This document shows, piece after piece, positions 3,742 to 28,838 of a DNA stretch of 64,000 nt (the stretch's first letter is position 1; each line of letters starts with the position of its first letter). The stretch is from a virus: IMG/VR virus record IMGVR_UViG_3300025000_000083, positions 1-64,000 of that record. The stretch is one strand, 5' to 3'. The notes under the pieces are model-generated. The model made no database searches. It saw only the letters and a program-made list of their open reading frames with translations, and had not been told where the DNA came from. A program made the translations under genes and the position numbers.

Positions 3742-3752
3742 TGCAATATTTT

Positions 3753-10746: not shown

Positions 10747-10967
10747 TTGTCTTTGATTTCAGTTAACCCCTTCTGTCTGTCCCTTGCCCACTTAGCACCT
10801 TGTCTTCTGCAAGTTTGATCATGGGTCTCATGATGAAAATTAATTGGATATTGTTTCTCTATCTCCTCATCTGTCAGCTCTGATCTCTGGCTGGCATCCG
10901 ATTCAAGGATATATTTGCCTTTTACATCAATCTCCATTCCGTGTCTCGTCCAATTATACTTTTTCAT
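10743..10967 (-). CDS. Hypothetical protein
   Basis: LTDEEIE...GAKWARD motif. Confidence 0.55.
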   Translation of the reverse strand: MKKYNWTRHGMEIDVKGKYILESDASQRSELTDEEIEKQYPINFHHETHDQTCRRQGAKWARDRQKGLTEIKDK

Positions 10968-11401
10968 TTATTTAATTTTTCTTGTTTTAAAAAATTATCT
11001 CTTATCTCAACAGCATCTTCATACGTTTTTGCAGGAAAACTATATGTATTAGGTCTTCTGGTTATTGAAACACGATATGTAGAACAATTATTTCTTTTCT
11101 GGATACAAACACTATCACGATGTCTTCTATTTATCTGATTTTCGCTACGTGTAACGAATCTGCAATTATTAGGTTCATAATTTCCGTCATTATTTATCCT
11201 GTCTATTTGCAATGTCTCATTAAATCCATTATGATCAGCCCAGTCTTTAAATATCATAAAATCATTCCACTTATTACAAACTGAAATACCCCTACCTCCA
11301 TAATTTTTATACGATTTACAGATTGGTTTTTTACATCTATCCAGCATTCCTCTCCAAACATAATAAAGTTTGGTTTTTGATAATCCGTGTTTTCTTTTCA
11401 T
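10964..11401 (-). CDS. HNH-type homing endonuclease
   Basis: HGLSKTKLY.VW.GM..RC, YGGRGI.VC..W, IDRINNDGNYEP.NCR. Confidence 0.85.
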   Translation of the reverse strand: MKRKHGLSKTKLYYVWRGMLDRCKKPICKSYKNYGGRGISVCNKWNDFMIFKDWADHNGFNETLQIDRINNDGNYEPNNCRFVTRSENQINRRHRDSVCIQKRNNCSTYRVSITRRPNTYSFPAKTYEDAVEIRDNFLKQEKLNK

Positions 11402-13801: not shown

Positions 13802-14329
13802 TCATGCAAGGTGATTCTCAATCTTAAACTTCCGGTATTGCTCCTTCATGTCAATGACAAGTGCGTCCCATGCGTCAAACTTCCATCCTGGATGCCTTTT
13901 TCTATCATCTGTGCTACCCTGATCCACAATTCTATGAAATGTAGGATGAACAATCATAATATTTACAGGATTAAGCCGGAAATACGTGTAGTTCTTTTTG
14001 TTCAAGATATGTGAAAATACATTCCAGAAATACGGTGTCCCCTTAAATCTGTCAAGTTTCTCTCCCGTAAACGGGCAAATGATACCCTTGCCTGACACAT
14101 AACGGTCATGCCACAAGTCCAGAAACATCTCCATCTGGTTTGTGTAGCCAAAACTCTTCTCTATCGGTATTTTCTCTGCTTCCATCTTCTTCTGTGGTGT
14201 GAATCGCTTCTCCTTGGACTCTTTTTGTTTTCTGAGATACTTTTCATCAGTCCTTTGTCTTTGGTGTGATTGACAAAAACCATGGCTGAACACCGGACGA
14301 AAACATCCTGATGCTCTACAAACCTTCAT
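13802..14329 (-). CDS. NinG/HNH-like nuclease-fold protein with N-terminal Zn finger
   Basis: C...GC...G.C..H; FSHIL.K..Y..FRL...NI......H. Confidence 0.55.
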   Translation of the reverse strand: MKVCRASGCFRPVFSHGFCQSHQRQRTDEKYLRKQKESKEKRFTPQKKMEAEKIPIEKSFGYTNQMEMFLDLWHDRYVSGKGIICPFTGEKLDRFKGTPYFWNVFSHILNKKNYTYFRLNPVNIMIVHPTFHRIVDQGSTDDRKRHPGWKFDAWDALVIDMKEQYRKFKIENHLA

Positions 14330-14660
14330 TTCTCAGGGTGTGTATTATTTCTGAGATAAAATTTCCTGCACCTATTCCAGTAAACGCCCCTATAACTGCA
14401 ATCATCCACGGTGGAGTGAAGTACATGATGTACCATACTTCAAGCAAAAATACAATCCATATTGATAAACAAAAGGAACATCTTAATAAGAATATCCACA
14501 CGGAGTCGGTTGTGTACTCAATGAGATGCTTATTATTCTGTATCTCCATCCATTTGCCCAACTTGCGAAATATCATGTTCTTGCGGGTAATTCTTGTCCA
14601 CAGTCCGGCAATGAAGCCACCTGCTATCCCCAAGAGTATCATAAACTGTAAATCTTTCAT
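14316..14660 (-). CDS. Membrane protein (DUF1360-like)
   Basis: TM segments with LL.C.FC.SIW. Confidence 0.5.
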   Translation of the reverse strand: MKDLQFMILLGIAGGFIAGLWTRITRKNMIFRKLGKWMEIQNNKHLIEYTTDSVWIFLLRCSFCLSIWIVFLLEVWYIMYFTPPWMIAVIGAFTGIGAGNFISEIIHTLRNEGL

Positions 14661-14775
14661 GTTTTTGTTTTTAAGGTTAAATTTATATTAAAAAAGAGGC
14701 ACTTTCCGTCTCGGCAGTAATCCTCTTTCTATCTTTTGTCCAGTAATGACAAGAAGTGTTACTGCAAATGTATGA

Positions 14776-15441
14776 TTATTTAATGTCATTGAGTTTGTAT
14801 TCTGTAAGATTATTTGCGATAATGTAATTATTCCGGGCAATTGCGGCTTCCTTAGGGGTCCTATGACACCCAAGATATATCTCTTTTTTATTCACACAAA
14901 TACCCGCTTGCCAATGATTTAGGGTATTAGGGGAGAAGCAAATTCCTGTATATCCTGACGTATTTGTTCTTCTCATCTTGGTATTAGTCCCCTGTATATG
15001 CCTTGTAGCATATCGTAAATTTCCCGGTTCATAATTACCTTCAGAGTCTATTCGGTCAATTGTGTAGCCTTCTTCACGATGATGAGGTAACTTATAGATA
15101 TATGATATAAACGCTTCCACGTCATTAAACCATTCATCACATAAGCGAATCCCCTTTCCTCCATAAAATTTATACTTTGGATTTTTTGGATTACATGTTC
15201 TTTCTTTTATATTCTGCCACACCTTAAAGTCTTTAAATTCACGCAATTCATGTATCCGATGAGAATCTCCTGCTCTTTTTCTCTGGTAGCAACCACAAGA
15301 CATTGTATTGCCTCTTTTTACATTTATTATACTTGCTTTAAAATGAGACTTGCAAAAAGGGCATTCAAAAATTGCGTTGTGTTGCGGTTGTTTACTTGTA
15401 GGTGTTGCATACTGATGTCCTAAATCTTCAATCATTTTCAT
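14776..15441 (-). CDS. HNH-AP2 homing endonuclease (alternative in-frame start at 15543)
   Basis: CPFC, SCGC, YGGKGI.LC..W, IDRID..GNYEPGNLR, NTSGY.G, AP2 tail. Confidence 0.88.
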   Translation of the reverse strand: MKMIEDLGHQYATPTSKQPQHNAIFECPFCKSHFKASIINVKRGNTMSCGCYQRKRAGDSHRIHELREFKDFKVWQNIKERTCNPKNPKYKFYGGKGIRLCDEWFNDVEAFISYIYKLPHHREEGYTIDRIDSEGNYEPGNLRYATRHIQGTNTKMRRTNTSGYTGICFSPNTLNHWQAGICVNKKEIYLGCHRTPKEAAIARNNYIIANNLTEYKLNDIK

Positions 15442-15571
15442 GGCAGTAAATATAAGGGCTCCGCAAGCAGAAGGACTATCAACAACACCCGAAGGAGTAA
15501 TTGCATCTGCTATTGGAGCCGTTAGTATTTCTTTTGATTGCATGATGTTGTTAATAGTCAATACAAAGATA
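15442..15571 (-). ncRNA. Promoter plus type-B structured leader
   Basis: TATCTTTG at 15564-15571; helices 15559-15544/15489-15474 and 15520-15506/15471-15457. Confidence 0.7.
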
Positions 15572-15575
15572 TAAA

Positions 15576-17204
15576 TTAATTTGTATTTAGCAAACTATTA
15601 ATTTCCGAAACCGTTGCATACTTACAAAACGTCTCTTTGTCTTTGTACTTTTCAAGCAACCCTAACTTCTCAGCTAAGATTAAATACCTTGGAGAAGTTA
15701 TCTGCGGGTCGATCCCGACCATTTTATTATATAACGTCTTTGTAAGAGCAAAGTCTCGTTCAGAATCTTTGTCATAATTAGGAACATCAAGTCTGTATTT
15801 ATTCCCCTCTTCTGTTTTCTTTTCTTTCATTGGTGCATTGAGAAAATCATCAGCCTCCTTGTCCACATCTTTTGGCTTCTGGTCAAAAGACTTGTTTATG
15901 GGTATTTCTCCCTGCGCTGGTGTCGTTCCTTCTTTATTTTCCTCCTTTGGCATGTTAGCAGCCACATATTCTGCAAGTTTATTCTCCTGGTGTGCAAAGA
16001 ATATCCCACGTAATTTCTTATTGGTGTTCTTGCCCCCGATGATTTCACAAGCCTCCATTGAATCCATATCATCCATGACCATCTTCTTCAATACCTCCGT
16101 ATCCATATCCTCCAATTGCTTCATAGTGTACTTGCCCTCTCTTTCTTCCGGTGCATCATTCTCAGGATGAACATCCCTGATCACTGGTTCTCCATCCTTT
16201 GCCACAACCACACCATCCATGTAAGCTACTGAACCTTTCTCTGCTTTGAAAGGGGATTCTTCTTTCGTCTCAGGTGAAACAATCACAGCATCCGTTACCT
16301 GTTGTCCTACAAACTTATCAGGATTGATTTTATTCACTGCACGTGCCGTTCTGTCTTCTGATTTGGCAGCATCCGTTTTATTGATAACAATTTGTTTCCC
16401 ATCTCCGGTGTTGATAACGTCCTTTTCTTCTGGCTTATGAGAATCCTCATTGTCCACGTAATCATAATCCTTTGCATCGACATCCCTTATCTCTGCCTGA
16501 TCATAGACAATGGCATTCATCATGTTGATGTCCACGGACAGGGGGGCATAGGTAGAGAGATTCAGCTTTAACACGGTCTTTTCACACATCTGCTCATAAC
16601 CTCCTTCTTCCTTGTCTGCCCATTTTCCCTTGCCTCTCTGGAAGGACTTACTGTACCTCTTGGCGTGGGTGTCAAGTTTCTCAATGGGCATGTAGTAATA
16701 CTTCTCAAAACCATTAATGAGCCTGAAATACGACACGTAACCAATGATGTTATCAGACTTCTTGCCTGTCTCGTCAAAGATATACTCTCCGGTGAATTTG
16801 TTATGGCTTTTCATTTCTCCCTCATACACCTCAGATACATTGATGATCTTAAACAGACCCGTTCTCTGAGCCAACTGAATGAAGCCTTTCTTCATCACTT
16901 GGAACTGTGCTTTCATTGACTGTGATGGTCCGTCAAAATAAGGCACGATGCCTGCAAATCCAAGTCCGGGGGTAAGGGGTAAATCCATACTTGCAGCCAT
17001 GAGTGCTGATGATATGACACTCATGTGGTCGCACTTCTGTAACTCTGCGCTTCCACTCATTATTGTTGTGATATTACTCACAAACATAGGGGCTTTCTTC
17101 CCCAATGCCTCCTCAAACTTCTTCTTGATAACATCTTGACTTAATAGGTTTCTGAACTTCTGTAATGAGGATCCTTCTGTTTTTGCTAATTCATTGTTTT
17201 CCAT
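15576..17204 (-). CDS. recT: RecT-family recombinase with long C-terminal extension
   Basis: L.KC...S..., LG.A.IVPY, AQFQ...KG.IQLA.R.G, VYEGE, IIGY, M..KTVLK. Confidence 0.9.
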   Translation of the reverse strand: MENNELAKTEGSSLQKFRNLLSQDVIKKKFEEALGKKAPMFVSNITTIMSGSAELQKCDHMSVISSALMAASMDLPLTPGLGFAGIVPYFDGPSQSMKAQFQVMKKGFIQLAQRTGLFKIINVSEVYEGEMKSHNKFTGEYIFDETGKKSDNIIGYVSYFRLINGFEKYYYMPIEKLDTHAKRYSKSFQRGKGKWADKEEGGYEQMCEKTVLKLNLSTYAPLSVDINMMNAIVYDQAEIRDVDAKDYDYVDNEDSHKPEEKDVINTGDGKQIVINKTDAAKSEDRTARAVNKINPDKFVGQQVTDAVIVSPETKEESPFKAEKGSVAYMDGVVVAKDGEPVIRDVHPENDAPEEREGKYTMKQLEDMDTEVLKKMVMDDMDSMEACEIIGGKNTNKKLRGIFFAHQENKLAEYVAANMPKEENKEGTTPAQGEIPINKSFDQKPKDVDKEADDFLNAPMKEKKTEEGNKYRLDVPNYDKDSERDFALTKTLYNKMVGIDPQITSPRYLILAEKLGLLEKYKDKETFCKYATVSEINSLLNTN

Positions 17205-17220
17205 GTCTGTAATTTTAAAT

Positions 17221-17496
17221 TTATGATTTACAATTTTTACTTTTCATCTCATCTGCTATTTGTTTTTGGGCTAATGACATCAGAAAGTCCTCACATGCCC
17301 TACTAAATTCTTTATACATTTTTGGACTCATATAAAGCTGAAACATCTTCGGAGGTTCTGGCTTATGACAAGCAAGATCAATAATGAAATCGGGAATTTC
17401 TTCATCATCATTATATAAACTTAATAAAAGAGAATGAGTAATATAGCCCTCTTCCATTTTCTCCTGCATATACTTGATAACCTCTGCCTTTTTCAT
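17221..17496 (-). CDS. Hypothetical protein
   Basis: ORF in operon. Confidence 0.55.
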   Translation of the reverse strand: MKKAEVIKYMQEKMEEGYITHSLLLSLYNDDEEIPDFIIDLACHKPEPPKMFQLYMSPKMYKEFSRACEDFLMSLAQKQIADEMKSKNCKS

Positions 17497-18074
17497 AACG
17501 AATAATTGTACTCTGCTTTACTACTTACCCATGACCTCTTTTGTGGCTCAATCCATTCAATGCCAATGAAGGCAAAGAAGTCCTCTTCCGTAATAAATGG
17601 AGGTGGCAATGTCGGGCAATTCTTATACTCAGGCTTGATGCGCCACGTGCTCCCCTTATGATCACACTCTCTTTTATACCTTAATCCGTCCATTGTGCCA
17701 CATAGACCCCTGCGATTCCATTGTACTGCCAACCCATGAGAAAAAACTGAGGATCCTGTCGAAATTGCAAGTATTCGTCCATAATCAGCAAGTGTAGTGA
17801 CGTGCAACTCTATCTGAATGCCCGATTCGGGGTATTTGAAGCGTTTTAAGCGAGTGCCGTTCGTCACAAGTCCTTTGAATCCTTCCGGGAACGCAATTCC
17901 CATGGAGAACTCGTCCTTGGGTACAATGACAAATTCTAAATCACCGACCATCTCACATTCCCGCCTAACTGAGCCAGCAATTGATATTTTTACACAAAAG
18001 GGAGAAATATATTTCTCAAACCTTTCTGCTATTTTTCTTGCTCGATCAAGAGACATTTTTAAATTTTTGCTCAT
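17493..18074 (-). CDS. polX: Minimal DNA polymerase X-like nucleotidyltransferase
   Basis: IAGSVRR...VGDLEFV, TGS..F, TEED.F..IG..WIEP..R; start revised to MSKNLK. Confidence 0.8.
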   Translation of the reverse strand: MSKNLKMSLDRARKIAERFEKYISPFCVKISIAGSVRRECEMVGDLEFVIVPKDEFSMGIAFPEGFKGLVTNGTRLKRFKYPESGIQIELHVTTLADYGRILAISTGSSVFSHGLAVQWNRRGLCGTMDGLRYKRECDHKGSTWRIKPEYKNCPTLPPPFITEEDFFAFIGIEWIEPQKRSWVSSKAEYNYSL

Positions 18075-18819
18075 ATATTTTAATTGCCTCAATTTCAGTT
18101 TTAAAATATCCGAAAAAATATCGTTTCCCATTAATTCGTTTAGCCGCAGCCCATCTTCCATTAGAACAATATACCCCATTGTATTGAGAACTTTTTTTCT
18201 TTCTAAATTGAGTAAAGTCGATACTAGTGTGCTTCCATGATTTATTATAAATAATTCGAGATAATTGTTCTGTTTTAATTTTAAAAGCAGAAGCAATTTT
18301 GGATCGTGGGGTTTTTTCTAATAGCATATCATGTATTCTTTTTAAATCGGATTCTTTAATTTTAGAAAAAAAATTTTGTTCTCCTAACATTCCTGTTTTT
18401 AAACCTATAGTATAAGCATGTTTATTATTTTCACTTGTTGTACACCATTTAAGGTTACTCACATGATTACAGCTTTGTATTCCATTGATGTGATTTACTA
18501 TTTTTTTGTCACTTTTTTCTAAAAAAGTTATTGCAACTAATCTATGTACGTAGAATACCTTTTCTTTATTCTCTTTCCATAAAATAACATGAAAGTAATT
18601 TAACTGCTTATTCCTTTTCCAATGGGATATAACTCTTGTTTTTGTATCAATATGCCCACATACGACACATTTTTTTTGAGACAAAGAAATTACCCTTCCA
18701 TAATTACTTATATAATATAGATTTTCATATTCAGGAATAGGCTTAAATATTTCATTAGGATACCTATATCTAAAATCTTTAAAATTAGAATCTTCGTAAA
18801 TGTTTAAATAATCTTTCAT
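18046..18819 (-). CDS. NUMOD4-HNH homing endonuclease with AP2-like tail
   Basis: FKPIPEYE.LY.ISNYGRV, VHRLVA..F, VNHING...N...NL.W.T..EN..H. Confidence 0.9.
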   Translation of the reverse strand: MKDYLNIYEDSNFKDFRYRYPNEIFKPIPEYENLYYISNYGRVISLSQKKCVVCGHIDTKTRVISHWKRNKQLNYFHVILWKENKEKVFYVHRLVAITFLEKSDKKIVNHINGIQSCNHVSNLKWCTTSENNKHAYTIGLKTGMLGEQNFFSKIKESDLKRIHDMLLEKTPRSKIASAFKIKTEQLSRIIYNKSWKHTSIDFTQFRKKKSSQYNGVYCSNGRWAAAKRINGKRYFFGYFKTEIEAIKIYEQKFKNVS

Positions 18820-18921
18820 TGTCAAGCTATTTAAGATTGTCAAGCAAAAAAGCAGAGAGAAGGAGGCTTGACTTCTCCGTATCACAGGGGGATCAATCCC
18901 TGCTATCTCTCCACAAATATA
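18820..18921 (-). ncRNA. Promoter plus type-A structured leader (copy 2)
   Basis: TATATTTG; GAGAGA-TAG-CAGGGATTGATCCCCCTG-TGATAC-GGAG..GTCAAGC.CTCC-T-TCTCTC; GCTTGAC occurs twice downstream. Confidence 0.8.
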
Positions 18922-18946
18922 TGAACTGTTGTTCATCTGTGCAAGT

Positions 18947-19477
18947 TTATTTTTTATTTAAAGGATTAACAAAGTCATTCCGATACCGCCATGTTCTATT
19001 CTCCTTACCAAACTTACCCATCTCCCTCTCATCCCATGAGCATTTGATGAGCCTGTTTGCCTTTGTCAGATTGGTGATGCTCCTGCGCACCGAGTTAAGC
19101 AATATCTTCTCTCCCTCTGCTTCAAGTATCTCATGCACCTTTGCCGGGGTGAACTTGTATGCAAACCTCTTTCTGAAGAAGTCCAATACAATGCCGTTCT
19201 GCTTTGCTGCCGTATCACGTGCCTGTGATAGTTGTTCTTCTGGCAACGGTACGGTGTCATGAAATACATTTTCTGGTTCCTTCATAAAAAATCTTTCTGC
19301 ACCGACAGGAAATCTATAATTTTCCATCTCCTTGGAAACTTCAATGTCTCTACATTCTTCCAAAATGCTCAAATGTTTATCCCTGTCTTTATCCTCCTCA
19401 TGGAACGTCAACTCAGGTTCTCTTGCAGACGGTAATGCCTCTGCTTTTCTTGGTCTGTGCTTATCAAATATTCCCAT
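18947..19477 (-). CDS. Winged-helix protein
   Basis: SVRRSITNL......K...G..G......W. Confidence 0.55.
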   Translation of the reverse strand: MGIFDKHRPRKAEALPSAREPELTFHEEDKDRDKHLSILEECRDIEVSKEMENYRFPVGAERFFMKEPENVFHDTVPLPEEQLSQARDTAAKQNGIVLDFFRKRFAYKFTPAKVHEILEAEGEKILLNSVRRSITNLTKANRLIKCSWDEREMGKFGKENRTWRYRNDFVNPLNKK

Positions 19478-19488
19478 GTCTTATCCTC

Positions 19489-19800
19489 CTATCCCTTGAT
19501 GCAAGTCAATCCTGAAAGTCTGTTATACCACTTACCCTTGCCATCTTTGATGACCTTATTGCCATCCAGACAGAAGGTAATCGTACACCAACACCCATCG
19601 GTAAGCTGATTAAGCTGAGTCATGTTCGTCTCATTGAACTCAAACATTACTTCCCTGGGATATTGCCCGATAAAAGTTTCCATGATTAAAATACGGAACT
19701 GTTTTGTTACCCCTGCTTTTGTCGTGAATGTCTCTGGCATCCCTACGTGGATGACCTTGCCGGAATAATCAAATTGATTTACGCTCTTGTTTTGTGACAT
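19489..19800 (-). CDS. DUF3127 OB-fold (SSB-like) protein
   Basis: YP.EV.FEF...F.L.G......KWYN.L. Confidence 0.75.
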   Translation of the reverse strand: MSQNKSVNQFDYSGKVIHVGMPETFTTKAGVTKQFRILIMETFIGQYPREVMFEFNETNMTQLNQLTDGCWCTITFCLDGNKVIKDGKGKWYNRLSGLTCIKG

Positions 19801-19808
19801 AGTTTTAG

Positions 19809-20225
19809 TTATAAAGTTTGAATTAAAATATACGTTCTTGGTGACTCTGAATATAGCTTCTCTGAGAATAACCTGCATATCTGTGAGTCGTCTTTGTAAA
19901 ATATGTGATTCATAGAATCGGTTGCGAATTTTACACAGTTATCCAAATCTTTCTTGCAGGTGTGAAACTCCGGTGCGTTATCTCTGAGCATGGAACTCTT
20001 TGCGCCACTACCATAATGACTCTTTGGTCTGCCGAAATAGAATATTATGGTTATGCCTATGGGTCCTTCTAACGGCTCCTTTGGTGCTTTCTGCTGTATC
20101 ACCGATAAAAAGTCATTTTTCTTATCACTTGATGGGTCATAGGTGCCTGAGAACTTACCTCTCTTGAAACTCCTGTGCCGCATCTGAGCATTGGGCTCAC
20201 CAAGCATCATTAATTCTATTGTCAT
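19809..20225 (-). CDS. rusA: RusA Holliday junction resolvase
   Basis: GEP....R.R, K.DLDN..K...D, DDSQI....K.Y. Confidence 0.9.
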   Translation of the reverse strand: MTIELMMLGEPNAQMRHRSFKRGKFSGTYDPSSDKKNDFLSVIQQKAPKEPLEGPIGITIIFYFGRPKSHYGSGAKSSMLRDNAPEFHTCKKDLDNCVKFATDSMNHIFYKDDSQICRLFSEKLYSESPRTYILIQTL

Positions 20226-21031
20226 TCTTTTATCTGTTTACCTATTATCCTCAACTTTTTTTCTGCATGACGTTTTATTTGAGACAAATGCATTTTTAAT
20301 TTTGTCTCGGATGTATGCAATTTCCCTAACCTATCCTTATTCCCTGTTTTGCATAGGCGCATTGCTTCTCTTTTTTCTTCTGACCACTTCCTCCCTACTG
20401 AATTTTTATTTCCTATCTTAGCCAAAGACATCTTTTTCCTTACTTCAAGAGACATGACTTTTCCTTTTTTAGCAAGACTCATTTTTAACTTTGCTTCATT
20501 TGAATGTGTCTTCCCTAAAAAGCTTTGCTGTCCCATTTTTGCCTTGCTGATATTCTCACATCTTTGTTTTTTATTATTATTCCAAGATTCACTAATTTTC
20601 TTTTTAAATTCTGGGGTTAATGGCTTCCCTTTTCCCCAAGGTATATGCCCCTTTTTAAATTCGGTATGCGGAGATATATGCAAGCCCTTATTTCGTAAAC
20701 TCTGCTTTCTACGTGATTCTACTGAATGCTTACAGCCAAGAGGGCTTCCCGCAATCTTAGAGATATTAAAATAAGGATTATATAAATCTATAAAAAATTG
20801 TTCGTTCCTAAGTAAATCAATCCTATCACAACCAATTAGCGTAGAAAAACACAAGTCATCTTCTCCATATTTATTGTAATGATCTTGCAATAAAAAAGAA
20901 TGATGTTTTTGTAATCTAAGGTCTTTGATATGTATGTTTTTTCTTTGCTCTATATGGACTGAACTTCCAATATAGCATCTTTGAAGATTACTTATAGATT
21001 GAATCATGTAAATGCCAGTGGTTGCTTTCAT
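20222..21031 (-). CDS. GIY-YIG homing endonuclease with NUMOD3 repeats (alternative start at 21136)
   Basis: GIY.I.....YIGSS, EQ.FI, repeated HS.E.K.KMS. Confidence 0.9.
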   Translation of the reverse strand: MKATTGIYMIQSISNLQRCYIGSSVHIEQRKNIHIKDLRLQKHHSFLLQDHYNKYGEDDLCFSTLIGCDRIDLLRNEQFFIDLYNPYFNISKIAGSPLGCKHSVESRRKQSLRNKGLHISPHTEFKKGHIPWGKGKPLTPEFKKKISESWNNNKKQRCENISKAKMGQQSFLGKTHSNEAKLKMSLAKKGKVMSLEVRKKMSLAKIGNKNSVGRKWSEEKREAMRLCKTGNKDRLGKLHTSETKLKMHLSQIKRHAEKKLRIIGKQIKE

Positions 21032-21164
21032 GTTAAGTATAAAAACCCCGATTGAAAGCGGCTTACTACTCGATCCATGTGATTGGAGGGAATACACTTT
21101 CGCACGGGGTGTTAATATTTCAGTTTCTTTTAACATGAATGAGTAGTAAAGCACTACAAATATA
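21032..21164 (-). ncRNA. Promoter plus type-B structured leader
   Basis: TATATTTG at 21157-21164; helices 21152-21133/21080-21061 and 21110-21095/21060-21045. Confidence 0.7.
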
Positions 21165-21175
21165 AGAAATTATGA

Positions 21176-21421
21176 TTACTTTGCTATACTTCGACCTATA
21201 ATTTTTATCTGACCCGGCAAAAAGGTCTCAATTTGCCCTGTCTTAACGTGCTCACATACTGCTATGGTGTAGTTCACTGCTGCTATCCTTTCTGCATCCA
21301 CATCAAACACCTTGTAGTCCAATCCCCAATAATGAAGCCAGTATTCACCCTTCTCATACATCGGTTCTCCGTCCTTTAACTCTCCGTCCTTCTCCCATGT
21401 TGCTTCTACAAGTATCTTCAT
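21176..21421 (-). CDS. Hypothetical protein
   Basis: H.WG...YT.A..E...GQI....P..I pattern. Confidence 0.6.
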   Translation of the reverse strand: MKILVEATWEKDGELKDGEPMYEKGEYWLHYWGLDYKVFDVDAERIAAVNYTIAVCEHVKTGQIETFLPGQIKIIGRSIAK

Positions 21422-21737
21422 CTTCTTTGTATTTCCAAATGTGTCCTGCCCTTGTTTTCTTTCCTGATTTCAATGATCTCAGTATCGCTCTTGATGTGTA
21501 TCCTACTGCCTTTGCAGCCACAAGTTGATTCTCAAATTCCGCTATCTCGATCCCTCCAAGATCACACTGTATGATCTTCTTTCCCGTTGCGTGCCCATAG
21601 TGCTTTGTCCCTTCACAGAACGATATTGACACTAACTCCCTGATGTACTCCTCTGCCCTGTCCTGTCTCCATGGAGTAATCAACCCCTCCTTCTTCATCC
21701 AATACAATGCCCTCTTAACGGCTCGTTCCTGATCCAT
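21354..21737 (-). CDS. NUMOD1-domain protein
   Basis: IIQ.DL.G..I.EF.....AA....I......K.T..GHIWKY. Confidence 0.65.
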   Translation of the reverse strand: MDQERAVKRALYWMKKEGLITPWRQDRAEEYIRELVSISFCEGTKHYGHATGKKIIQCDLGGIEIAEFENQLVAAKAVGYTSRAILRSLKSGKKTRAGHIWKYKEDEDTCRSNMGEGRRVKGRRTDV

Positions 21738-22401
21738 CTCTTATAATATTCAATGGATGTTCCGTTCCATGTGCGATAACAAAATCATTGTAGGCTCGGG
21801 CTGCCTGTTCGGGGGTTAAGTGATATCCTAAACGGTATTTTTCCCCATTATAATGAATCTCAGCAACCCATCGTTTTATTCTTTCTCCTGTTTTAATATA
21901 AGAAATACCCCTATATCCTGTTGTATTTGTCTTTCTTAGTAGCCGGGTGTTCTCATTACTGATGTTTGATGTAATCCACCTGCAATTACTTGGGTAATAA
22001 CCCTTGTCATTATTTTCTCTGTCAAGCAATAATCCTTTTTTATACCCATTTACTATTGCCCAATTATAAAATGAAACAAAATTATTTTTCCATTCATCAC
22101 AAATAGTTATTCCCCTGCCCCCCCATTCTGGATATGCTTTATCTTTAGGATTCAAACACCGTTGTTGCATAGCCTTAAACACACCATAAAGAGGATGTTT
22201 GACTAACCCATGCTTTATACTTCGTTCTAAAAATAATCTTGCGTTTTCACAATGGCATGATTTTATATACCCCCGGCTTATTGCACTTACACATGCTCTG
22301 AAAGGTTGCTTACAAATAGGGCATTCATAAATGGCAAGGTGCTTTTTTTGCTTACTATTCTCTGTTGTAAATTGTCTTCCTAAATCGTGAATCATTTTCA
22401 T
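21715..22401 (-). CDS. HNH-AP2 homing endonuclease (alternative start at 22509)
   Basis: Paralog of 14776: MKMI.DLG.Q, CPIC, GGRGI.IC.EW, DR.NND.GY.P.NCRW, AP2 tail. Confidence 0.88.
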   Translation of the reverse strand: MKMIHDLGRQFTTENSKQKKHLAIYECPICKQPFRACVSAISRGYIKSCHCENARLFLERSIKHGLVKHPLYGVFKAMQQRCLNPKDKAYPEWGGRGITICDEWKNNFVSFYNWAIVNGYKKGLLLDRENNDKGYYPSNCRWITSNISNENTRLLRKTNTTGYRGISYIKTGERIKRWVAEIHYNGEKYRLGYHLTPEQAARAYNDFVIAHGTEHPLNIIRDGSGTSR

Positions 22402-22544
22402 GGGTGGAAATAATGGAGCATCCCCGGCTGCTTTAATCATCGGCATCTGTGTCGAAACGACAGAATTAGACGAAACCAGGGATGCAGTATTTTTACTTAA
22501 AATTTCCATTATTCAGATACCGTGATTAAAGCGTAGTAAAGATA
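22402..22544 (-). ncRNA. Promoter-like site plus type-B structured leader
   Basis: TATCTTTA at 22537-22544; helices 22532-22514/22449-22430 and 22485-22474/22429-22418. Confidence 0.7.
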
Positions 22545-22552
22545 TGCTAATT

Positions 22553-23716
22553 TTATTCCCAATCCAAATTTATTTTATCAAACTCTTCCAGAACTCTTTC
22601 TTCAGAGGGCGATTCCTTGATCTTATTTGAAGCAACTCTGTTCTTTGATCCTTTCCTTTCGCTCCACGAATAGCTTCCGAGACGACCAAAGTCTATGGCT
22701 TCTGCTCCGCTTAAAGTAAGTTGTTTGATTAAAGTATTGGCAATGCCTGTGCGCTCCTCCTCAATAACATTCTTCACCTTTAGAAGCATTTTGTCCTGCT
22801 TACATAATCCATACGCTTCCATCGTTCCCTCAATTGTCTCCCTTTCCTGTAGATACCTCTTATTAAGAAACTCCTGATAGGATTTCGTCTTATCGGGATC
22901 CGGTTCATGCTTCTGAATGATAGCATCCTGTTTTTCCACTTCAGATAGATTACCCGCTCTCTCAGCTTCCTGTCTTTTGGCAAATGCCTCTTTAGCGGGT
23001 AACACCCGGTTGTACCAAAATCCCTTGGTTATTTCAATGATTTTCTCACAGAGTCCATCATCACGCTGTATTTTCTCTACTCTTAGCCTATTGCCATTTT
23101 CCAGAATACAAATTTCGGCATAGTCAGATTCAATGATCGCCATGTACTGATGTATCTGCATGAGGTAATAAATGGGCATTCCGTCCTCCCATTTTTGGGC
23201 AACCCATTGGTTCATTGCCTTGCATTCCAATACGGCTTCTGTGGTCAGAGGATCGCCTGTAAGTAAGTTTCTTCCCCCTGTGATATTCATTACCCTGTCA
23301 AGAGATGCAAATAGCCATGGATATTTTGGATTTACCACATACCCATTAACACTCCTGCATTCCCTTATGATCTTTTTATCCTTATAGTTCTGAATATAAC
23401 CCTCTTGCGTTCCGTCCCAATAACGCCATTTATCTGCAATCTGATCTTCGAGTTCTCTTCCCCAAAACATAGACTCGTTATCGTTCTTGCGGGTATCAAT
23501 AGTCCCTACTTTTTCATGGAATATCCATATTGCAGAATCATAGTCAGGATTAGGTAAAAGCAGATTCCCTACTTCAGAGCCGCCAATTCCATTTTTACGA
23601 AACCGATACCATTCTTCGGAATGTTCTGGTATCCTGGTAATAATCAAATCACTTCTCATTTTTTCTGATGTATTTTTCAAGTTTCTTTTTAGCCCTTTTG
23701 AGTTTTCCCTTCTCAA
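22553..23716 (-). CDS. YqaJ/lambda-exonuclease-like recombination nuclease (true start probably 23659)
   Basis: EW...R..GIGGSE, M.WG..LE, PWL.ASLDR, LECK, Y..Q...YM. Confidence 0.9.
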   Translation of the reverse strand: MRRENSKGLKRNLKNTSEKMRSDLIITRIPEHSEEWYRFRKNGIGGSEVGNLLLPNPDYDSAIWIFHEKVGTIDTRKNDNESMFWGRELEDQIADKWRYWDGTQEGYIQNYKDKKIIRECRSVNGYVVNPKYPWLFASLDRVMNITGGRNLLTGDPLTTEAVLECKAMNQWVAQKWEDGMPIYYLMQIHQYMAIIESDYAEICILENGNRLRVEKIQRDDGLCEKIIEITKGFWYNRVLPAKEAFAKRQEAERAGNLSEVEKQDAIIQKHEPDPDKTKSYQEFLNKRYLQERETIEGTMEAYGLCKQDKMLLKVKNVIEEERTGIANTLIKQLTLSGAEAIDFGRLGSYSWSERKGSKNRVASNKIKESPSEERVLEEFDKINLDWE

Positions 23717-23775
23717 TTAATAAGGCTACATGAATATATTGTTCTAAACTAATGCCACTCATCGTTATATTTCTT

Positions 23776-24264
23776 TTATTGTCCCCAGAGTTCTTTCCTT
23801 CTTTTCTCTGCTGCCTTTAAGTTATCCTCTCCCAACTCAGTTTTTCTTCCGTGATCGTCAATACATTTGTCAGGCAGTAGTAAAAACATTCCCTTCGCAT
23901 CAGGAATCCAGACAACATCATTATCTTTCCAATGAAAGTCTCCCCTCTCTCCTTTAAACGGAGGAATAAGGTCTGGCATTTCTTCTTCATCTTTTAGCAT
24001 GTGTTTCAAATCGGGAGGGAGTTGATCAAGATGATAAACTTCAACAATACATCCCTCTACTTTTTTGTACCAGAAAGGTAAGCACATATACTCATTTCCC
24101 CCTTCTGCAATAAGGCTCCCTGACGATTCAATAAAATCAATTACTTCCTGTTTTACTTCTACTCTATCCATGGCTATTTCATGTTTAATGGTTGCGGAGG
24201 TTTGATGTCCAGCTTCAATGGCTGTAACTCTTTGTATATCTCTGTGAAGATTTCGTTGATCCAA
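23776..24264 (-). CDS. Hypothetical protein (true start probably 24171)
   Basis: ORF in operon. Confidence 0.5.
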   Translation of the reverse strand: MDQRNLHRDIQRVTAIEAGHQTSATIKHEIAMDRVEVKQEVIDFIESSGSLIAEGGNEYMCLPFWYKKVEGCIVEVYHLDQLPPDLKHMLKDEEEMPDLIPPFKGERGDFHWKDNDVVWIPDAKGMFLLLPDKCIDDHGRKTELGEDNLKAAEKRRKELWGQ

Positions 24265-24602
24265 TCGGCTTGGATGCTCATCAACTCAACTTCCTGGCGA
24301 CCTTCATTGCTGATGTCGCTGTACCATTTCGCATATAGTTTCGCTAAATTATTGACAAGCCTCTCGTGCTGTGCACATAGTTTCATTCCCTCATCATAGT
24401 GCGTTTGGTACACCGCCAGCCATGCCTTGTAAGCATCGTACTGTGCCTGTCCTGCTTTCTTTTTGTCTTCGCTTTCCCATTTATAGGTGTCATCGTGCAT
24501 GATGGCTTCGGCCTTGGCTACTTTCTCCTTCTGAGGGTCGAGTATCTTCTGCTTAAACACTTGCAATTTATTCGCAAACGCATAATCATTAACATTGCTC
24601 AT
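24174..24602 (-). CDS. Hypothetical coiled-coil protein
   Basis: ORF in operon. Confidence 0.6.
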   Translation of the reverse strand: MSNVNDYAFANKLQVFKQKILDPQKEKVAKAEAIMHDDTYKWESEDKKKAGQAQYDAYKAWLAVYQTHYDEGMKLCAQHERLVNNLAKLYAKWYSDISNEGRQEVELMSIQADWINEIFTEIYKELQPLKLDIKPPQPLNMK

Positions 24603-24880
24603 ATCTTCTTGTTTTTAGTTTTGTCCCTTCCAAAGAATAACCTGTGCTCATTGACCAGAAAATGATCAGTGCCATCAATCACCATCAGCGATGCACTCTT
24701 GCGTGGAAAGTAAACGTGCTCCCCCTTCTTGAATACCCTGCACTCACTACCCAAATCTGTTATTGTACCCCACTCAGGCAACATTTCCACAGAGTTTTTT
24801 GGGATGATGAGTTGTCCTGATGGTGTTCTCTCCGGCAATTTGTCCGGCTTAATAAGCACTACTGTTCCTAAAATTATCAT
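24599..24880 (-). CDS. groES: GroES-like co-chaperonin
   Basis: VLIKP....E.T.SG.LIIP...G.I...G....GE.V.F...IDG......E. Confidence 0.85.
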   Translation of the reverse strand: MIILGTVVLIKPDKLPERTPSGQLIIPKNSVEMLPEWGTITDLGSECRVFKKGEHVYFPRKSASLMVIDGTDHFLVNEHRLFFGRDKTKNKKI

Positions 24881-24902
24881 ATCAAATTGTTTTTAAGTTA
24901 CA

Positions 24903-26873
24903 TCAAAAGGGCAGGTCCGACTCATTCTTTCCGTTATCTCCGAACACATCATCGTCCTTTTGGTTCTTTGGAGGATTAAGTGCTCCCCTTATTGGCTCCG
25001 GTGCTTTCTTTTCCTTGTCATCCACAAGTTCAAAACGTCCTCCCTTCTTATAGTCCATCTTCAACTTTACCCTGTCATGTATCCCTTCTTCTTCAAATCT
25101 TATCTTCTCTGTTCTGAGAATAGTAGGTGTTTCGGAATCTACAAAATACTTATCATCCTCATCTGCCTCCTCGGGAATATCCTCTTTCTTCTTCTTACGG
25201 TTCATATTCCGGTGAACAATGATACCTATGTCACTCTTCTCTTTCCATGCTGAACTCCCTTTGATGTCATACAAGCACGGCATCCGGTAGTTAATCCCTA
25301 TTTTCTCTATTTTGGTGGGGTGTGCAACGATTATGCCATGCAGGTCATAGTAGTCATTAAAATCAATGAGATGATCAAGCTGTGAACTTATATATGCCGT
25401 TTCAGTGATGTTCTTCGGCTGCTCATGTTCAATCTTGTTCCACGCATCAATGATATAACCAAAGATGTTCTCCGTCTTTTTGAGATACACAAGGTACTCG
25501 CATATTGATGCCATGGTGTTCACCTTATCTGATTTTATCTTGCCATTAAAGGTGTCAAAGTTCCTCCTGTCTGGTGATACGACAAAGAAATGCTTTTGTA
25601 TGTACCACATGGTCTTGTCACGCAATGGTTTTCCCATGGAGTTACCCCAACCATCCCTGAAATACTTGCCTGTGATAACCTCTGCTATCTTTACATATTC
25701 CCTACTTACTGGTCTGTTCTCAGGGGTGAATAACCCAAACTTCAAATCTGCTTTATCATTATGACTGATAAGTTCCGTGGTGTGCCATCTGACATACGTG
25801 CTCTTGCCTGATCCGGGCAAGCCAGTAACCACCTGCAGTCTCTTTGGCTTCTCGGTATAGAGTCTGTCAATCTCTGGGGTTCCCATCATCAAACCTTTTG
25901 TAAACCCTTCCTTTGCATATACTTCAAGTTCATCCTTGACATCCATTGGCCTAATGATCCCTGCAAGCGGGAATGATGATAGATTCTGATAGCACTCATC
26001 AACACCCGCTTTCCCAAGTGCCGGAAGTTTCTTATCGTCTTTATTAACCCCTATATAAACTTCGTTTGAATCCTTGTACCCAATAGGATAATTAACATAC
26101 TTGCACTTCTCTTTGCCAAGAAGCAACGCTAAGTGATTTCTTAACTTAATCCCTGCAGCATCTCCATCTGTGGCAATGATATGTAATTCAACGTCCGCAA
26201 TGACACTTTGAACATACTTATCGTGAATATAATCAAACTCGTTTTCAAAATTCTTCGCTAAAAGACTTGGTGCCCCTGATGGTACGCTTATAATGTTTTT
26301 ATAATCACACTGAATCCACGTAAGAGTATCTACATGCCCTTCTGTCCACGTAAGTATCTTCTTCTCTTCGGGAGGAAAATTGACGTATTCGAGTCCCCAC
26401 GGAAGCGTTCTGGTGCCATATTCCTTATTGAGATTCCACCATTTTGTAAAATCATCTCCCTTCTTCCACCGGATATTAAGATACTTCACATCTACAAGAG
26501 TCTGGCTGATGTAGGTAGGGAAGCCAAGTATAGGCTTCTGCCCCATGGAAAATTCAAAAACCTTTCTTCCTAATGGAATCTTTAAGTCAATTCCTCTGCT
26601 CTCCCAATATGCTCTTATCTCCTTCGAGTAGGTTTCAGCAAACTGCTTTGGCATTTTAGACCTCTCTTGTACCTTAGCATAAATCTCCATTGCCCCCAAA
26701 TTAGCACTCCATGAGCAATGATGACATTTTATCCAAACATTTCCGGGCTCATTATTAACGGTAAGGCACGGTGCGTTCTTATGATGCTGACGAGTATCAT
26801 TGCACTTTGGGCACTGCGTTGACCAACGTACTTTTCCGGGAATTGTTTTTATGCCGAGGTCTTCGAGAATCAT
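24903..26873 (-). CDS. T7 gp4/Twinkle-like primase-helicase
   Basis: Zn ribbon CPKC..CHHC, Toprim TEG..D and D.D.AG, Walker A GLPGSGKS, IID.WN, VAHP.K, YDI.GS..W. Confidence 0.92.
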   Translation of the reverse strand: MILEDLGIKTIPGKVRWSTQCPKCNDTRQHHKNAPCLTVNNEPGNVWIKCHHCSWSANLGAMEIYAKVQERSKMPKQFAETYSKEIRAYWESRGIDLKIPLGRKVFEFSMGQKPILGFPTYISQTLVDVKYLNIRWKKGDDFTKWWNLNKEYGTRTLPWGLEYVNFPPEEKKILTWTEGHVDTLTWIQCDYKNIISVPSGAPSLLAKNFENEFDYIHDKYVQSVIADVELHIIATDGDAAGIKLRNHLALLLGKEKCKYVNYPIGYKDSNEVYIGVNKDDKKLPALGKAGVDECYQNLSSFPLAGIIRPMDVKDELEVYAKEGFTKGLMMGTPEIDRLYTEKPKRLQVVTGLPGSGKSTYVRWHTTELISHNDKADLKFGLFTPENRPVSREYVKIAEVITGKYFRDGWGNSMGKPLRDKTMWYIQKHFFVVSPDRRNFDTFNGKIKSDKVNTMASICEYLVYLKKTENIFGYIIDAWNKIEHEQPKNITETAYISSQLDHLIDFNDYYDLHGIIVAHPTKIEKIGINYRMPCLYDIKGSSAWKEKSDIGIIVHRNMNRKKKKEDIPEEADEDDKYFVDSETPTILRTEKIRFEEEGIHDRVKLKMDYKKGGRFELVDDKEKKAPEPIRGALNPPKNQKDDDVFGDNGKNESDLPF

Positions 26874-27199
26874 ACCTTAATATACTTTTCTGACTTTTCA
26901 TTACGTACGATGAACTTCGGGCCATCATTACCTTCTTTGTCTGGATACAAGTAACAGTAGTCCAGTTCGGTGTCATACTTGCCATCTATTATCAGTGGCC
27001 TTGTTTTATTGGTAATTGTTGATACTGCCAAATTCGTTATGAGGGCAAACTGGCTTATCGTAAAGACATTGTAAAGCATTATTGTCTTTATCCTATCTTC
27101 ATCCATCCCTGTTTTTAAGGATATTGCTTTAATGAGCTCGGTGTCCGTCTTATGCAATTGACACTTTACTCCCCTTATAAGTCCAAATTTTTCTTCCAT
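26870..27199 (-). CDS. Probable HTH DNA-binding protein
   Basis: FTISQFALITNLAVSTI; TAGCTTTG promoter element at about 27220-27227. Confidence 0.55.
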   Translation of the reverse strand: MEEKFGLIRGVKCQLHKTDTELIKAISLKTGMDEDRIKTIMLYNVFTISQFALITNLAVSTITNKTRPLIIDGKYDTELDYCYLYPDKEGNDGPKFIVRNEKSEKYIKV

Positions 27200-27297
27200 G
27201 GTGAAATAATTGATTCATGCAAAGCTAATGCTTGTTATTTTATTTTGCAAATATATTTTATAATTTGTTTTTGTAAAGTTATTAACAGCCACCAAAT

Positions 27298-27323
27298 AAA
27301 AAGGGAAACATTACTGTCTCCCT
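27298..27323 (-). terminator. Probable terminator closing the late operon
   Basis: AGGGAGACA/TGTTTCCCT stem plus T-run. Confidence 0.55.
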
Positions 27324-27352
27324 GATTCGATGCGTCTGAGATGCACAATAAG

Positions 27353-28099
27353 TTAATTTTTATCTTTCTGACGCACTCGTCTTATTTTCCATGCTAATAC
27401 TAATTTTGTTTTTTGTTCTTGGGACATAGGGATTCCTTTATTATGAGCAGGGGTACCCTTACGTGCTTCACTTATCTTCTTTTTTATTTCATCTAACATA
27501 GGTCCTCGCTTTGGCATCTTATGAGATTTTCCTATTCTACAAAGACTTCTATTTATTAATGCCTGCCCAACTATTTTTCTTCCTTTATTTGCCTTAATTA
27601 TTGCTTGCCTGGTTTTTTCTGGCATTTTCCTTCCAAAATTAGGATGCTTATCTCCCTTAATAGATAATCCTCTTCTCTTTTTCCATTCCTCAGACTGTAT
27701 GCGTCCTTTGTTAGCTATACTCATTTTCCTTCTAACTTCTTCTGGTATTATCTTACCTCTATTAGCCTTTATTATTTTTTGCTTAGTTTCTTCAGTCATT
27801 TTGCGACCCAATGTACTTCCTGCTATTTTACATACATTAAAGTATGGCTGCAGAGTGTTAATATAGTATTGTTCTCTCTCAATAAGAAATTGAGGCAAAC
27901 AGGGTTCTATGATTGAAAAAATCAAATCATCAATCCCATATTTATCTGCATGATGTTGAAGTTTGGGATTATGATGAGTTTTTAGCCTAAGTTGTCTTTT
28001 GTGATCCGCCCATCTATTTTTATAATAAATAGCACTCCCAATGTAAATCCTTTCGGGCTTAACCTTGGATTGAATCTTATATATGACAGGAACGATCAT
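27353..28099 (-). CDS. GIY-YIG homing endonuclease with NUMOD3 repeats
   Basis: VIYKIQSKVKPERIYIGS, REQYYI, PYFN.CKIAGS. Confidence 0.9.
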   Translation of the reverse strand: MIVPVIYKIQSKVKPERIYIGSAIYYKNRWADHKRQLRLKTHHNPKLQHHADKYGIDDLIFSIIEPCLPQFLIEREQYYINTLQPYFNVCKIAGSTLGRKMTEETKQKIIKANRGKIIPEEVRRKMSIANKGRIQSEEWKKRRGLSIKGDKHPNFGRKMPEKTRQAIIKANKGRKIVGQALINRSLCRIGKSHKMPKRGPMLDEIKKKISEARKGTPAHNKGIPMSQEQKTKLVLAWKIRRVRQKDKN

Positions 28100-28200
28100 A
28101 ACTGAACTTATTAATGACACTGAACTTAAAAAAGATGGAAGAGCGTTCAGTAAACCCTTGTCATCGGGGGATCAATCCCGACTATCCATCTTCAAAGATA
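28100..28200 (-). ncRNA. Promoter plus type-A structured leader (copy 3)
   Basis: TATCTTTG; AAGATGGA-TAG-TCGGGATTGATCCCCCGA-TGACAA-GGGT..ACTGAAC-GCTC-T-TCCATCTT; GTTCAGT occurs twice downstream. Confidence 0.8.
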
Positions 28201-28203
28201 TAA

Positions 28204-28833: not shown

Positions 28834-28838
28834 AGTTT

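Follow-up and report, generated by a model that had tools for sequence, protein, structure and literature searches.

Interleaved long-range helices and two in-frame starts in the leaders of homing-endonuclease cassettes of a phage

The window studied here is a 64,000-nucleotide stretch of viral DNA (positions 1 to 64,000 of the IMG/VR record IMGVR_UViG_3300025000_000083). It lies within a virus record of 72,210 bp with 40% G+C, and the whole genome was scanned as 72.2 kb. On the minus strand, which carries the majority of the genes and on which the RNA coordinates below are counted, it was found that three homing-endonuclease genes are each preceded by a leader of about 120 nucleotides (nt), here called L1, L2, and L3. 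The predicted 5′ end of each transcript (strand A) pairs with a distant strand A′, which lies in the loop of a second helix formed by B and B′, and two start codons, an upstream ATG1 and the native ATG2, share one open frame. With six further leaders from related phage and metagenome DNA, nine leaders were compared. Sequence comparison indicates that the A-B-A′-B′ helices are real, conserved, and covarying. The regulatory leader, and not the nuclease gene alone, is a unit of exchange between mobile cassettes. I consider it rather probable that each leader is a cis-acting RNA gate on nuclease translation and forms the 5′ part of a self-contained cassette.

Architecture of the three leaders

Each leader consists of a Bacteroidota-type TAnnTTT(G/A) box, four nucleotides, and then the helix A/A′, whose first paired base is the predicted transcription start (+1), a G (Table 1). 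A first-pass annotation of the window had proposed that a segment A of 16-20 nt pairs with A′ about 55-65 nt downstream in an arrangement interleaved with B/B′, and that A′ lies in the B/B′ loop abutting or nearly abutting B′. Refolding recovered this pairing in all three leaders, with a gap of 0-3 nt between A′ and B′. The regions given were right, while the ATG2 codons of L2 and L3 start at 21031 and 22401, one base off the positions first assigned. The onset of the helix exactly at the predicted transcription start was absent from that annotation.

The duplex energies of A/A′ are -22.8 kcal/mol in L1, -22.7 kcal/mol in L2 (with a bulge on each strand), and -29.1 kcal/mol in L3 (with one bulge). 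In a genome-wide duplex scan of both strands, in which a 24-nt arm was paired with the region 30-75 nt downstream in steps of 4, L3 ranked first on the minus strand (-28.9 kcal/mol), L2 second (-24.7 kcal/mol), and L1 12th (-22.8 kcal/mol), against a background with a mean of about -10 kcal/mol and a standard deviation of 3.4-3.6. A plain inverted-repeat search missed all three helices because they contain G.U pairs and bulges.

Plain minimum-free-energy (MFE) folding of L1-L3 favours hairpin B over A/A′. Hairpin B is composite; it combines the G+C-rich helices B1 and B2 with either an A/U lower stem or an outer helix from ATG1 to ATG2. The lower stem, present in most leaders, pairs an AAATAYT sequence with a U-rich tract ahead of ATG2. 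L3 has the outer helix instead, in which the ATG1 region pairs with the bases preceding ATG2. An AAATA(C/T)T linker had been noted before B, and the motif is indeed present in all three leaders, but not as a free linker; in L1 it is the 5′ strand of the A/U lower stem, and in L2 and L3 its place is immediately 5′ of B. A′ is located at the 3′ side of the B apical loop (32-44 nt) and ends 0-3 nt ahead of the B 3′ strand, which heads towards ATG2. In several leaders, small local hairpins extend over the 5′ half of A′.

Table 1. Elements of the three leaders and their cargo genes in the window (nt, position in the predicted transcript; UTR, untranslated region)
Leader	Feature	Position	Strand	Remarks
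L1	Promoter-like -7 box TATCTTTG	15564..15571	-	4-nt spacer 15560-15563; predicted +1 G 15559
L1	Strand A (nt 1-16), whole 5′ UTR	15544..15559	-	
L1	Upstream in-frame ATG1 (nt 17)	15541..15543	-	
L1	B 5′ strand	15505..15533	-	Lower A/U stem with AAATACT, B1 GGCTCC, B2 AGCAGA
L1	Strand A′ (nt 71-86)	15474..15489	-	In B apical loop; A/A′ 16 bp
L1	B 3′ strand	15444..15472	-	Ends 3 nt before ATG2
L1	Cargo, phrog_374-type endonuclease	14776..15441	-	ATG2 15439-15441 (nt 119); 34 leader codons; long form from 15543
L2	Promoter-like -7 box TATATTTG	21157..21164	-	Predicted +1 G 21152
L2	Strand A (nt 1-20)	21133..21152	-	ATG1 21134-21136 (nt 17) inside
L2	B 5′ strand	21094..21111	-	B1 CCCCG, B2 GAAAGT
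L2	Strand A′ (nt 73-92)	21061..21080	-	A/A′ 19 bp
L2	B 3′ strand	21044..21060	-	Abuts A′
L2	Cargo, GIY-YIG/NUMOD3 endonuclease	20222..21031	-	ATG2 21029-21031 (nt 122); 35 leader codons; long form from 21136
L3	Promoter-like -7 box TATCTTTA	22537..22544	-	Predicted +1 G 22532
L3	Strand A (nt 1-19)	22514..22532	-	
L3	Outer-helix 5′ strand	22505..22513	-	With ATG1 22507-22509 (nt 24); pairs with 22409-22417 just upstream of ATG2
L3	B 5′ strand GCATCCCTGG	22476..22485	-	
L3	Strand A′ (nt 84-103)	22430..22449	-	A/A′ 19 bp
L3	B 3′ strand, then outer-helix 3′ strand	22409..22427	-	B 3′ strand 22418-22427; outer helix 22409-22417
L3	Cargo, phrog_374-type endonuclease	21715..22401	-	ATG2 22399-22401 (nt 132); 36 leader codons; long form from 22509

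Six further leaders

The six further leaders are L068, L070, L065a, L065b, and two in the contig C255. L068 and L070 are metagenome homologues that were noticed by their open upstream frame, and folding gave the same build. I then folded the 24 nt after every TAnnTTT(G/A) site with a 4-nt spacer in 147 loci and the genome (2007 sites) against the following 25-90 nt, and any ATG1 was recorded. The three window leaders, L068, and L070 came out at the top ranks together with the new L065a and L065b. Scanned in the same way, another 80 unrelated HNH loci (962 sites) gave no leader. C255 was found in a scan of a genome collection; it has a homologue of L3 recognised by a protein match, and a second leader that ranked first among 203 sites in the box-and-duplex scan. 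Thus, L065a, L065b, and C255a were found by the box and a strong duplex, and C255b by a leader-peptide match. C255 (G001:C255, loci L238-L241) is a collinear, circularly permuted relative of 72,687 bp with 65-82% identity in 28 blastn segments, and it bears two leaders of the present kind (type B in the first-pass annotation) and one type-A-like leader.

All nine leaders precede homing endonucleases, which belong to four PHROG families. Six precede phrog_374 genes (Pfam gives a sub-threshold AP2 match in L3 and L070 and none in L1, L068, and C255a; C255b was outside that scan), and one each precedes a gene of phrog_59 (NUMOD4+HNH_3), phrog_99 (HNH_3+AP2), and phrog_314 (GIY-YIG).

Other searches returned little. 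Single-protein scans of viral contigs gave distant homologues only, all of them lacking leaders, and a DNA pattern derived from the shared ATG2 region matched two unrelated genes. Alignment-based scans of metagenome and viral contigs (80 loci each) gave the leader only in L068 and L070; in another locus, L071, the upstream frame is open and the fold is a plain local hairpin. A protein search with the leader alone (residues 1-40) found just three other proteins. An Rfam 15 cmscan of window positions 14000-29000 with E-values up to 5 gave eight weak hits and no family match. One of the weak hits lies inside L3 (22414-22466) and is to a plastid ycf3 intron model (18.9 bits versus a gathering threshold of 55.2); it was taken as chance. 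No variants inside the leaders were found among matching contigs of public sequencing runs, and no near-identical phage records were found.

Conservation and covariation

The build is constant in 9/9 leaders: the box, 4 nt, and a G(+1) that is the first paired base, ATG1 at nt 17-24, ATG2 at nt 114-132, and A′ 0-3 nt before the B 3′ strand. Strand A pairs best with its own A′ in 9/9 leaders, with a mean of -25.0 kcal/mol for own and -10.4 kcal/mol for foreign partners. For B, the best partner of the 5′ segment is the 3′ segment of the same leader in 8/9 (-22.3 versus -12.7 kcal/mol). The frequency of random re-pairings reaching either observed mean was 1/100000. The earlier proposal that the stem sequences differ while the topology is the same is supported by this own-partner pairing. 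Among the A/A′ pair positions counted from the 5′ end in seven leaders, 15 of 16 have two to five pair types; this count leans towards pairing because the pairs were defined by folding each sequence. A MAFFT alignment of the seven leaders was out of register at the stems and was not used for pair counts.

The alignment of L3 with its C255 homologue is unambiguous, with 88% column identity. It was revealed that 74/74 cells are standard pairs and that none is broken. Double changes occurred at two A/A′ pairs and one B pair, and four one-sided changes lead to or from G.U. In a control in which the partner was slid by 1-3 columns, 31-49% of the cells were paired and there was no double change; a shuffle control is weak with two sequences (60/500). 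The unpaired stretch between B and A′ is nearly unalignable between the two leaders, while its length and frame are kept.

G.U pairs account for 15/130 of the A/A′ pairs, and folding is more favourable for the sense than for the antisense strand in 7/7 leaders. These two features indicate that the helix acts in the mRNA and not in the DNA. The sigma-A box of Flavobacterium covers -12 to -5 according to the text available for one study (PMC9723704). A box at this distance places +1 on the first paired G in 9/9 leaders. The helix cannot be extended upstream of +1 in six of the seven leaders tested, and in L070 it gains two A-U pairs.

In protein homologues of the L3 cargo, the N-terminal extension persists while the identity of the body falls to 47-74%; the 20 protein sequences read were chosen for high coverage. 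One protein, P0122, is the only leader-bearing GIY-YIG homologue among 119 others, and it has an L2-type extension on a 48%-identical body. The leader peptide of L065b resembles, by eye, that of P0010, the cargo of which is of another family.

Two starts in one open frame

The in-frame ATG1 had been placed 34-36 codons upstream of the domain start, with no stop between, and this holds (34, 35, and 36 codons upstream of ATG2 in L1, L2, and L3). Across the nine leaders, the leader open reading frame (ORF) has 32-36 codons and no in-frame stop between ATG1 and ATG2 in any case, as opposed to totals of 21 and 30 in the two remaining frames (2/2/2 and 2/4/3 in L1/L2/L3). Strand A′ falls on codons of this ORF. 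At about 2.8 stops per frame per leader, the chance of an open frame is about 6% per leader. The frame is open in all three scan-found leaders, though it was no selection criterion.

The methionine at ATG2 is kept in 9/9 DNA leaders and in 17/17 leader-bearing proteins (of the 20 read), and family members outside the leader-bearing group begin where ATG2 lies. It looks as if both starts are functional, or at any rate under constraint. The 5′ UTR is 16-23 nt in length and lies wholly within A/A′ in the nine leaders; ATG1 itself is inside A/A′ in four, overlaps it by 1 nt in one, and is 0-4 nt away in the other four. A C precedes ATG1 in 5/9 leaders and ATG2 in 7/9, and the same is true of 19/68 other genes. 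The C before ATG creates self-complementary CAUG words, which pair ATG1 with ATG2 at the base of a long hairpin in several MFE folds.

Folding energetics and a proposed mechanism

Prefixes ending before A′ (the first 67-83 nt) are nearly unstructured in 7/7 leaders (-2.4 to -7.2 kcal/mol), and A/A′ becomes the MFE structure once A′ is present, again in 7/7. ViennaRNA treats nested structures only, and the coexistence of A/A′ and B is outside its model. Within the nested model, two states can be compared: state I, with A/A′ formed, in which ATG1 would be hidden and ATG2 free, and state II, with B formed, in which the 5′ UTR and ATG1 would be free and ATG2 hidden. State I minus state II ranges from -7.6 to +10.1 kcal/mol with a mean of about +0.5 (nine leaders). 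The summed energies of A/A′ and B are -39 to -59 kcal/mol if sterics are ignored. Near-equal nested states are compatible with a switch and equally with a pseudoknot in which both parts are stable.

On the gate reading, the transcript would begin with strand A at the +1 of a host-type promoter. The nascent 5′ region would stay unstructured until A′ is made, and a ribosome would load at ATG1 in that window alone and translate B and A′ in frame on its way to the nuclease. In-frame stops would be absent because ribosomes from ATG1 must read through B and A′. Once A′ has emerged with A unoccupied, A/A′ would close and B would mask ATG2. The closed form would most likely be a pseudoknot between the 5′ end and the loop, in which the mRNA is stable and poorly translated. 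The outcome would be a small amount of nuclease that is independent of the genomic context, wherever the cassette lands. A fuller version of this idea is a tentative possibility. According to it, the leader is a portable translational governor, composed of the 5′-end-to-hairpin-loop pseudoknot and two in-frame starts, that acts as a single-burst gate for hosts without Shine-Dalgarno (SD) recognition, has been exchanged among unrelated homing-endonuclease families, and evolves faster in sequence and more conservatively in shape than its cargo.

Several points weigh against the gate. The cost of opening the region from -15 to +12 is 5.0-11.8 kcal/mol at ATG1 and 1.0-11.6 kcal/mol at ATG2, compared with a mean of 6.0 and a standard deviation of 3.0 kcal/mol for 65 other phage genes, and ATG1 of L1, ATG2 of L1, and ATG2 of L065b are no more closed than average. 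Since the start windows are only moderately closed in the nested model, strong repression would require A/A′ and B to coexist. A′ is contiguous with the B 3′ strand, however, and by a loop-length estimate a coaxial pseudoknot seems to leave a linker too short for the B lower stem, so that ATG2 would seem to be exposed and not locked. A stacked pseudoknot that forbids the lower stem would favour a start-codon toggle or a processing site, which are discussed below. The strict retention of the ATG2 methionine is unexplained if ATG1 is the sole regulated start. Three of the nine leaders were picked up by a scan with the box and a strong duplex as criteria, and TAnnTTTG is not enriched on the sense strand genome-wide (48 versus 42). 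The transcription start, the choice of start codon, and the fold have been predicted from the sequence. As for the position of B, its 3′ strand ends near ATG2 in L1, L070, and L065b and at a greater distance upstream in L2, L068, and L065a.

Alternative explanations

The first-pass annotation had suggested a bistable, translation-coupled switch. The coupling to translation is plausible, since a ribosome that starts at ATG1 would have to traverse B and A′. Bistability would be one possible outcome only: A/A′ and B/B′ are built from separate nucleotides, sterics alone would oppose their joint formation, and a pseudoknot holding both may exist. If sterics make A/A′ and the full B exclusive, the leader would toggle between states I and II, so that the fold sets the long or the short isoform and ribosome traffic from ATG1 biases the choice. 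I regard such a start-codon toggle as unlikely, though more likely than the other alternatives. The nested-state energies are close, the interleaved order and the short A′-B′ junction are kept in 9/9 leaders as if the helices were coupled, ATG1 and ATG2 are both conserved, and the loop-length estimate suggests that the B lower stem is incompatible with a stacked A/A′. Yet the two helices have no common nucleotide, unlike those of known switches, and one start would be open in either state, so the nuclease would be unrestrained. Moreover, no peptide is conserved in those stretches of the 32-36-residue extension that correspond to unpaired RNA (the loops of L3 and C255 are largely unalignable), and thus a distinct function of the long isoform is without support.

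Less probable still is a processing site, at which RNase III or another double-strand RNase would cut A/A′, open ATG2, and activate a nuclease of native length. The cut would remove the 5′ UTR, ATG1, and the B 5′ strand and leave B′ single-stranded. Translation from a phage leader is activated by RNase III cleavage in the case of lambda N, and owing to the interleaving, a cut in A/A′ would excise exactly the B 5′ strand; ATG2 and its A/U-rich upstream tract are also conserved. This explanation leaves the conserved in-frame ATG1 and the stop-free frame unaccounted for, and the helices are rather short for RNase III and have no recognisable shared sequence.

It is about equally improbable that the leader is only a stabiliser or insulator, in which the paired 5′ triphosphate end blocks 5′-end-dependent decay and the fold shields the start region from the flanks. 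The helix starts at the predicted +1 in 9/9 leaders, other cassettes (at 28200, 18921, and 3741) also have a 5′-proximal helix after a TAnnTTTG box, and the leader moves with the cassette to different sites, all of which would suit this role. A simple 5′ hairpin would suffice for it, however, and the location of A′ in the B loop beside B′, the reach of B to ATG2, and the kept ATG1 and frame would be unexplained.

That the N-terminal extension itself carries the function, as a propeptide or degron for instance, with the RNA pairing secondary, is very improbable: the frame is open in 9/9 leaders and the extension occurs in predicted homologues, but peptide similarity follows only the paired or conserved RNA segments, codon changes in A′ and B are matched by compensating changes in the partner strand, even where this is the untranslated strand A, and G.U usage is strand-specific. 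Three other candidates were rejected. For a guide RNA directing A to the homing site, A has no genome match at three or fewer mismatches except its own A′, and the empty site is dissimilar. By eye, there is no canonical slippery heptamer in frame for a frameshift signal, and TAnnTTTA, as an internal promoter before ATG2, is found in L1 only.

Comparison with known systems

The start-site hairpin of T-even phages is the closest known system. The text available for one study describes T-even homing endonucleases (I-TevI, I-TevII, I-TevIII, segB, and Aeh1 mobE) as restrained by RNA structures that sequester the start site (PMC2988022). Both there and here, a cis RNA structure that is expected to limit translation stands before a phage homing-endonuclease gene, and the regulatory element lies within the mobile gene's own neighbourhood. 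The T-even structure is a single local hairpin over the SD sequence, which is escaped by a late promoter inside the hairpin. In contrast, the present leader has no SD; it has two interleaved helices, a paired 5′ terminal base, and a second in-frame start with a leader ORF. The box lies 4 nt upstream of A in 9/9 leaders, not inside a hairpin, and therefore the transcript contains each helix with its two arms. Literature full texts (without supplements) on homing endonucleases together with RNA structure, pseudoknots, or untranslated regions gave T4 work and papers on other subjects, and nothing like this element.

The maturation gene of MS2 is described as open to translation only until a long-distance interaction in the 5′ UTR has formed (PMC4615214). 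As far as that account goes, a 5′-proximal complementary sequence pairs with the initiation region, as A, which is the whole 5′ UTR, does here; the start is open on unfolded nascent RNA, and local hairpins overlapping one arm could delay closure. MS2 differs, on the same account, in that it is an RNA-phage genome and SD-based, with no second start, no leader ORF, and no enclosing hairpin, and it is not mobile.

The mRNA of a type I toxin can likewise be locked, as for hok. For the toxin aapA3, the mRNA is said to be locked by long-range pairing of its 5′ end and by metastable hairpins (PMC6733600, as far as its available text goes). The likeness to these toxin mRNAs, as described, is that the mRNA of a harmful protein is kept inert by 5′-end folding and that co-transcriptional structures matter; they differ in that an antisense RNA serves as the antitoxin and processing switches them on. 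In this genome, neither an antisense partner nor a trans target of A was found.

The order A-B-A′-B′ with disjoint strands (9/9 leaders) is that of an H-type pseudoknot. Compared with this type, Stem 1 of the leader has 16-20 bp and starts from the transcript's first base, the loop between B and A′ is long (10-24 nt), and the junction is 0-3 nt. In classical bistable switches, the alternative helices share a strand; here, A (nt 1-22), B 5′, A′, and B 3′ are separate in 9/9 leaders. Features of a leader-peptide attenuator were not found, as there is no in-frame stop (9/9) and no terminator-like site in the leaders, and the apical loop measures 32-44 nt. The control of a homing-endonuclease gene by an RNA in cis is of a known kind, and the modular architecture is apparently new.

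Cargo, empty sites, and neighbouring genes

Pfam identified GIY-YIG and NUMOD3 in the gene at 20222-21136, which confirmed the cargo type given in the first-pass annotation. The two other genes had been called HNH-AP2. PHROGs places both in families annotated as HNH endonuclease (phrog_374 for the L1 and L3 cargo), while the Pfam HNH models do not match them and Pfam AP2 is only sub-threshold in one of the two. The claim that the module is shuffled across cargo stands, because the leader is found on unrelated GIY-YIG, NUMOD4+HNH_3, HNH_3+AP2, and phrog_374 types.

In the locus L064, a YqaJ-like exonuclease gene encodes a protein 99% identical to that of the window, and the stop codon of this gene overlaps the start of the one that follows, a homologue of window 21354-21737. 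In the window, these two genes are separated by 815 nt (21738-22552), which contain the box, the leader, and the endonuclease of the L3 cassette. The locus L065 (YqaJ 57% identical) also lacks the L3 insert, and it lacks the 950-nt GIY-YIG insert (the L2 cassette, about 20226-21175) between an 81-residue gene and RusA. An L3-type cassette is located at a different site relative to RusA and YqaJ in C255. The empty sites in related phages indicate that the promoter, leader, and gene are one inserted cassette. Family hits, presence or absence between genes (L064 and L065), and the other site in C255 mark a free-standing homing-endonuclease cassette; an intron-borne endonuclease was rejected, since the insertions are intergenic.

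Some observations were made around the cassettes. The ORF of the L3 cargo lacks its own stop codon where the cassette ends and reads 23 nt into the start of the downstream gene of 127 residues (21715-21737). A contig of the sequencing run X11 joins 15572, the base just upstream of the L1 cassette, to 19813 in the RusA region; it has a depth of 2.7, a 41-nt side, and 22 other letters at the junction, and 4240 nt are skipped. It could be a variant genome with the L1 cassette elsewhere, a deletion, or a chimera. Right after the stop of the L1 cargo, at 14690-14775 on the minus strand, there is another TACATTTG box, and about 50 nt downstream of it lies a terminator-like AAAGAGG...CCTCTTTTTT stem ahead of the next gene. 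The region of the TACATTTG box could be a small transcript or the leader of the next gene.

Four endonuclease-like genes (51141-51845, 45472-46284, 10964-11401, and genome positions 70760-71314) have no box and no leader. Two are GIY-YIG genes and two are related to the L1 and L3 cargo, and each abuts its upstream gene. Thus, the leader is not obligatory for such genes in this phage. At 28130-28210, 18880-18930, and 3700-3750 on the minus strand, TAT(A/C)TTTG boxes are directly followed by a different 5′-proximal fold, which contains a GGGATTGATCCCC-like or GGTCGGGGTCATGTCCGAC hairpin and whose helix starts near the predicted +1. The box at 28200 precedes a GIY-YIG gene (27353-28120), and its fold ends in a T run. 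The folds at 28200, 18921, and 3741 are presumably the leader called type A in the first-pass annotation.

Genome background and host

Upstream regions in this genome are A-rich (45% A and 13% G), and an SD-like word is found upstream of 10/68 ORF starts. Sigma-70 promoters are not enriched (27 seen versus 29.4 expected). C255 is part of a metagenome-assembled genome named Prolixibacteraceae, a weak hint at the host. The A-rich upstream regions, the few SD words, the TAnnTTT(G/A) boxes, and the metagenome-assembled genome of C255 suggest a Bacteroidota-type host; these are hints and not proof. Translation initiation in Bacteroidia is reportedly tuned by mRNA structure and not by SD pairing, according to the text available for one study (PMC6847099). 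The public sequencing runs with matching DNA are groundwater and soil metagenomes, all of them DNA runs.

Implications

Homing endonucleases must be expressed, but sparingly. The leader bears on how these nucleases are restrained outside T4-like phages, in hosts whose ribosomes ignore the Shine-Dalgarno sequence. It is a candidate for a new cis-regulatory RNA with clear covariation, a defined (predicted) 5′ end, and an unusual dual-start design, and at about 120 nt it is small enough for direct probing and reporter work. If it is truly a context-independent module of low output, the leader would also serve in the engineering of Bacteroidota and their phages, as a natural insulated part.

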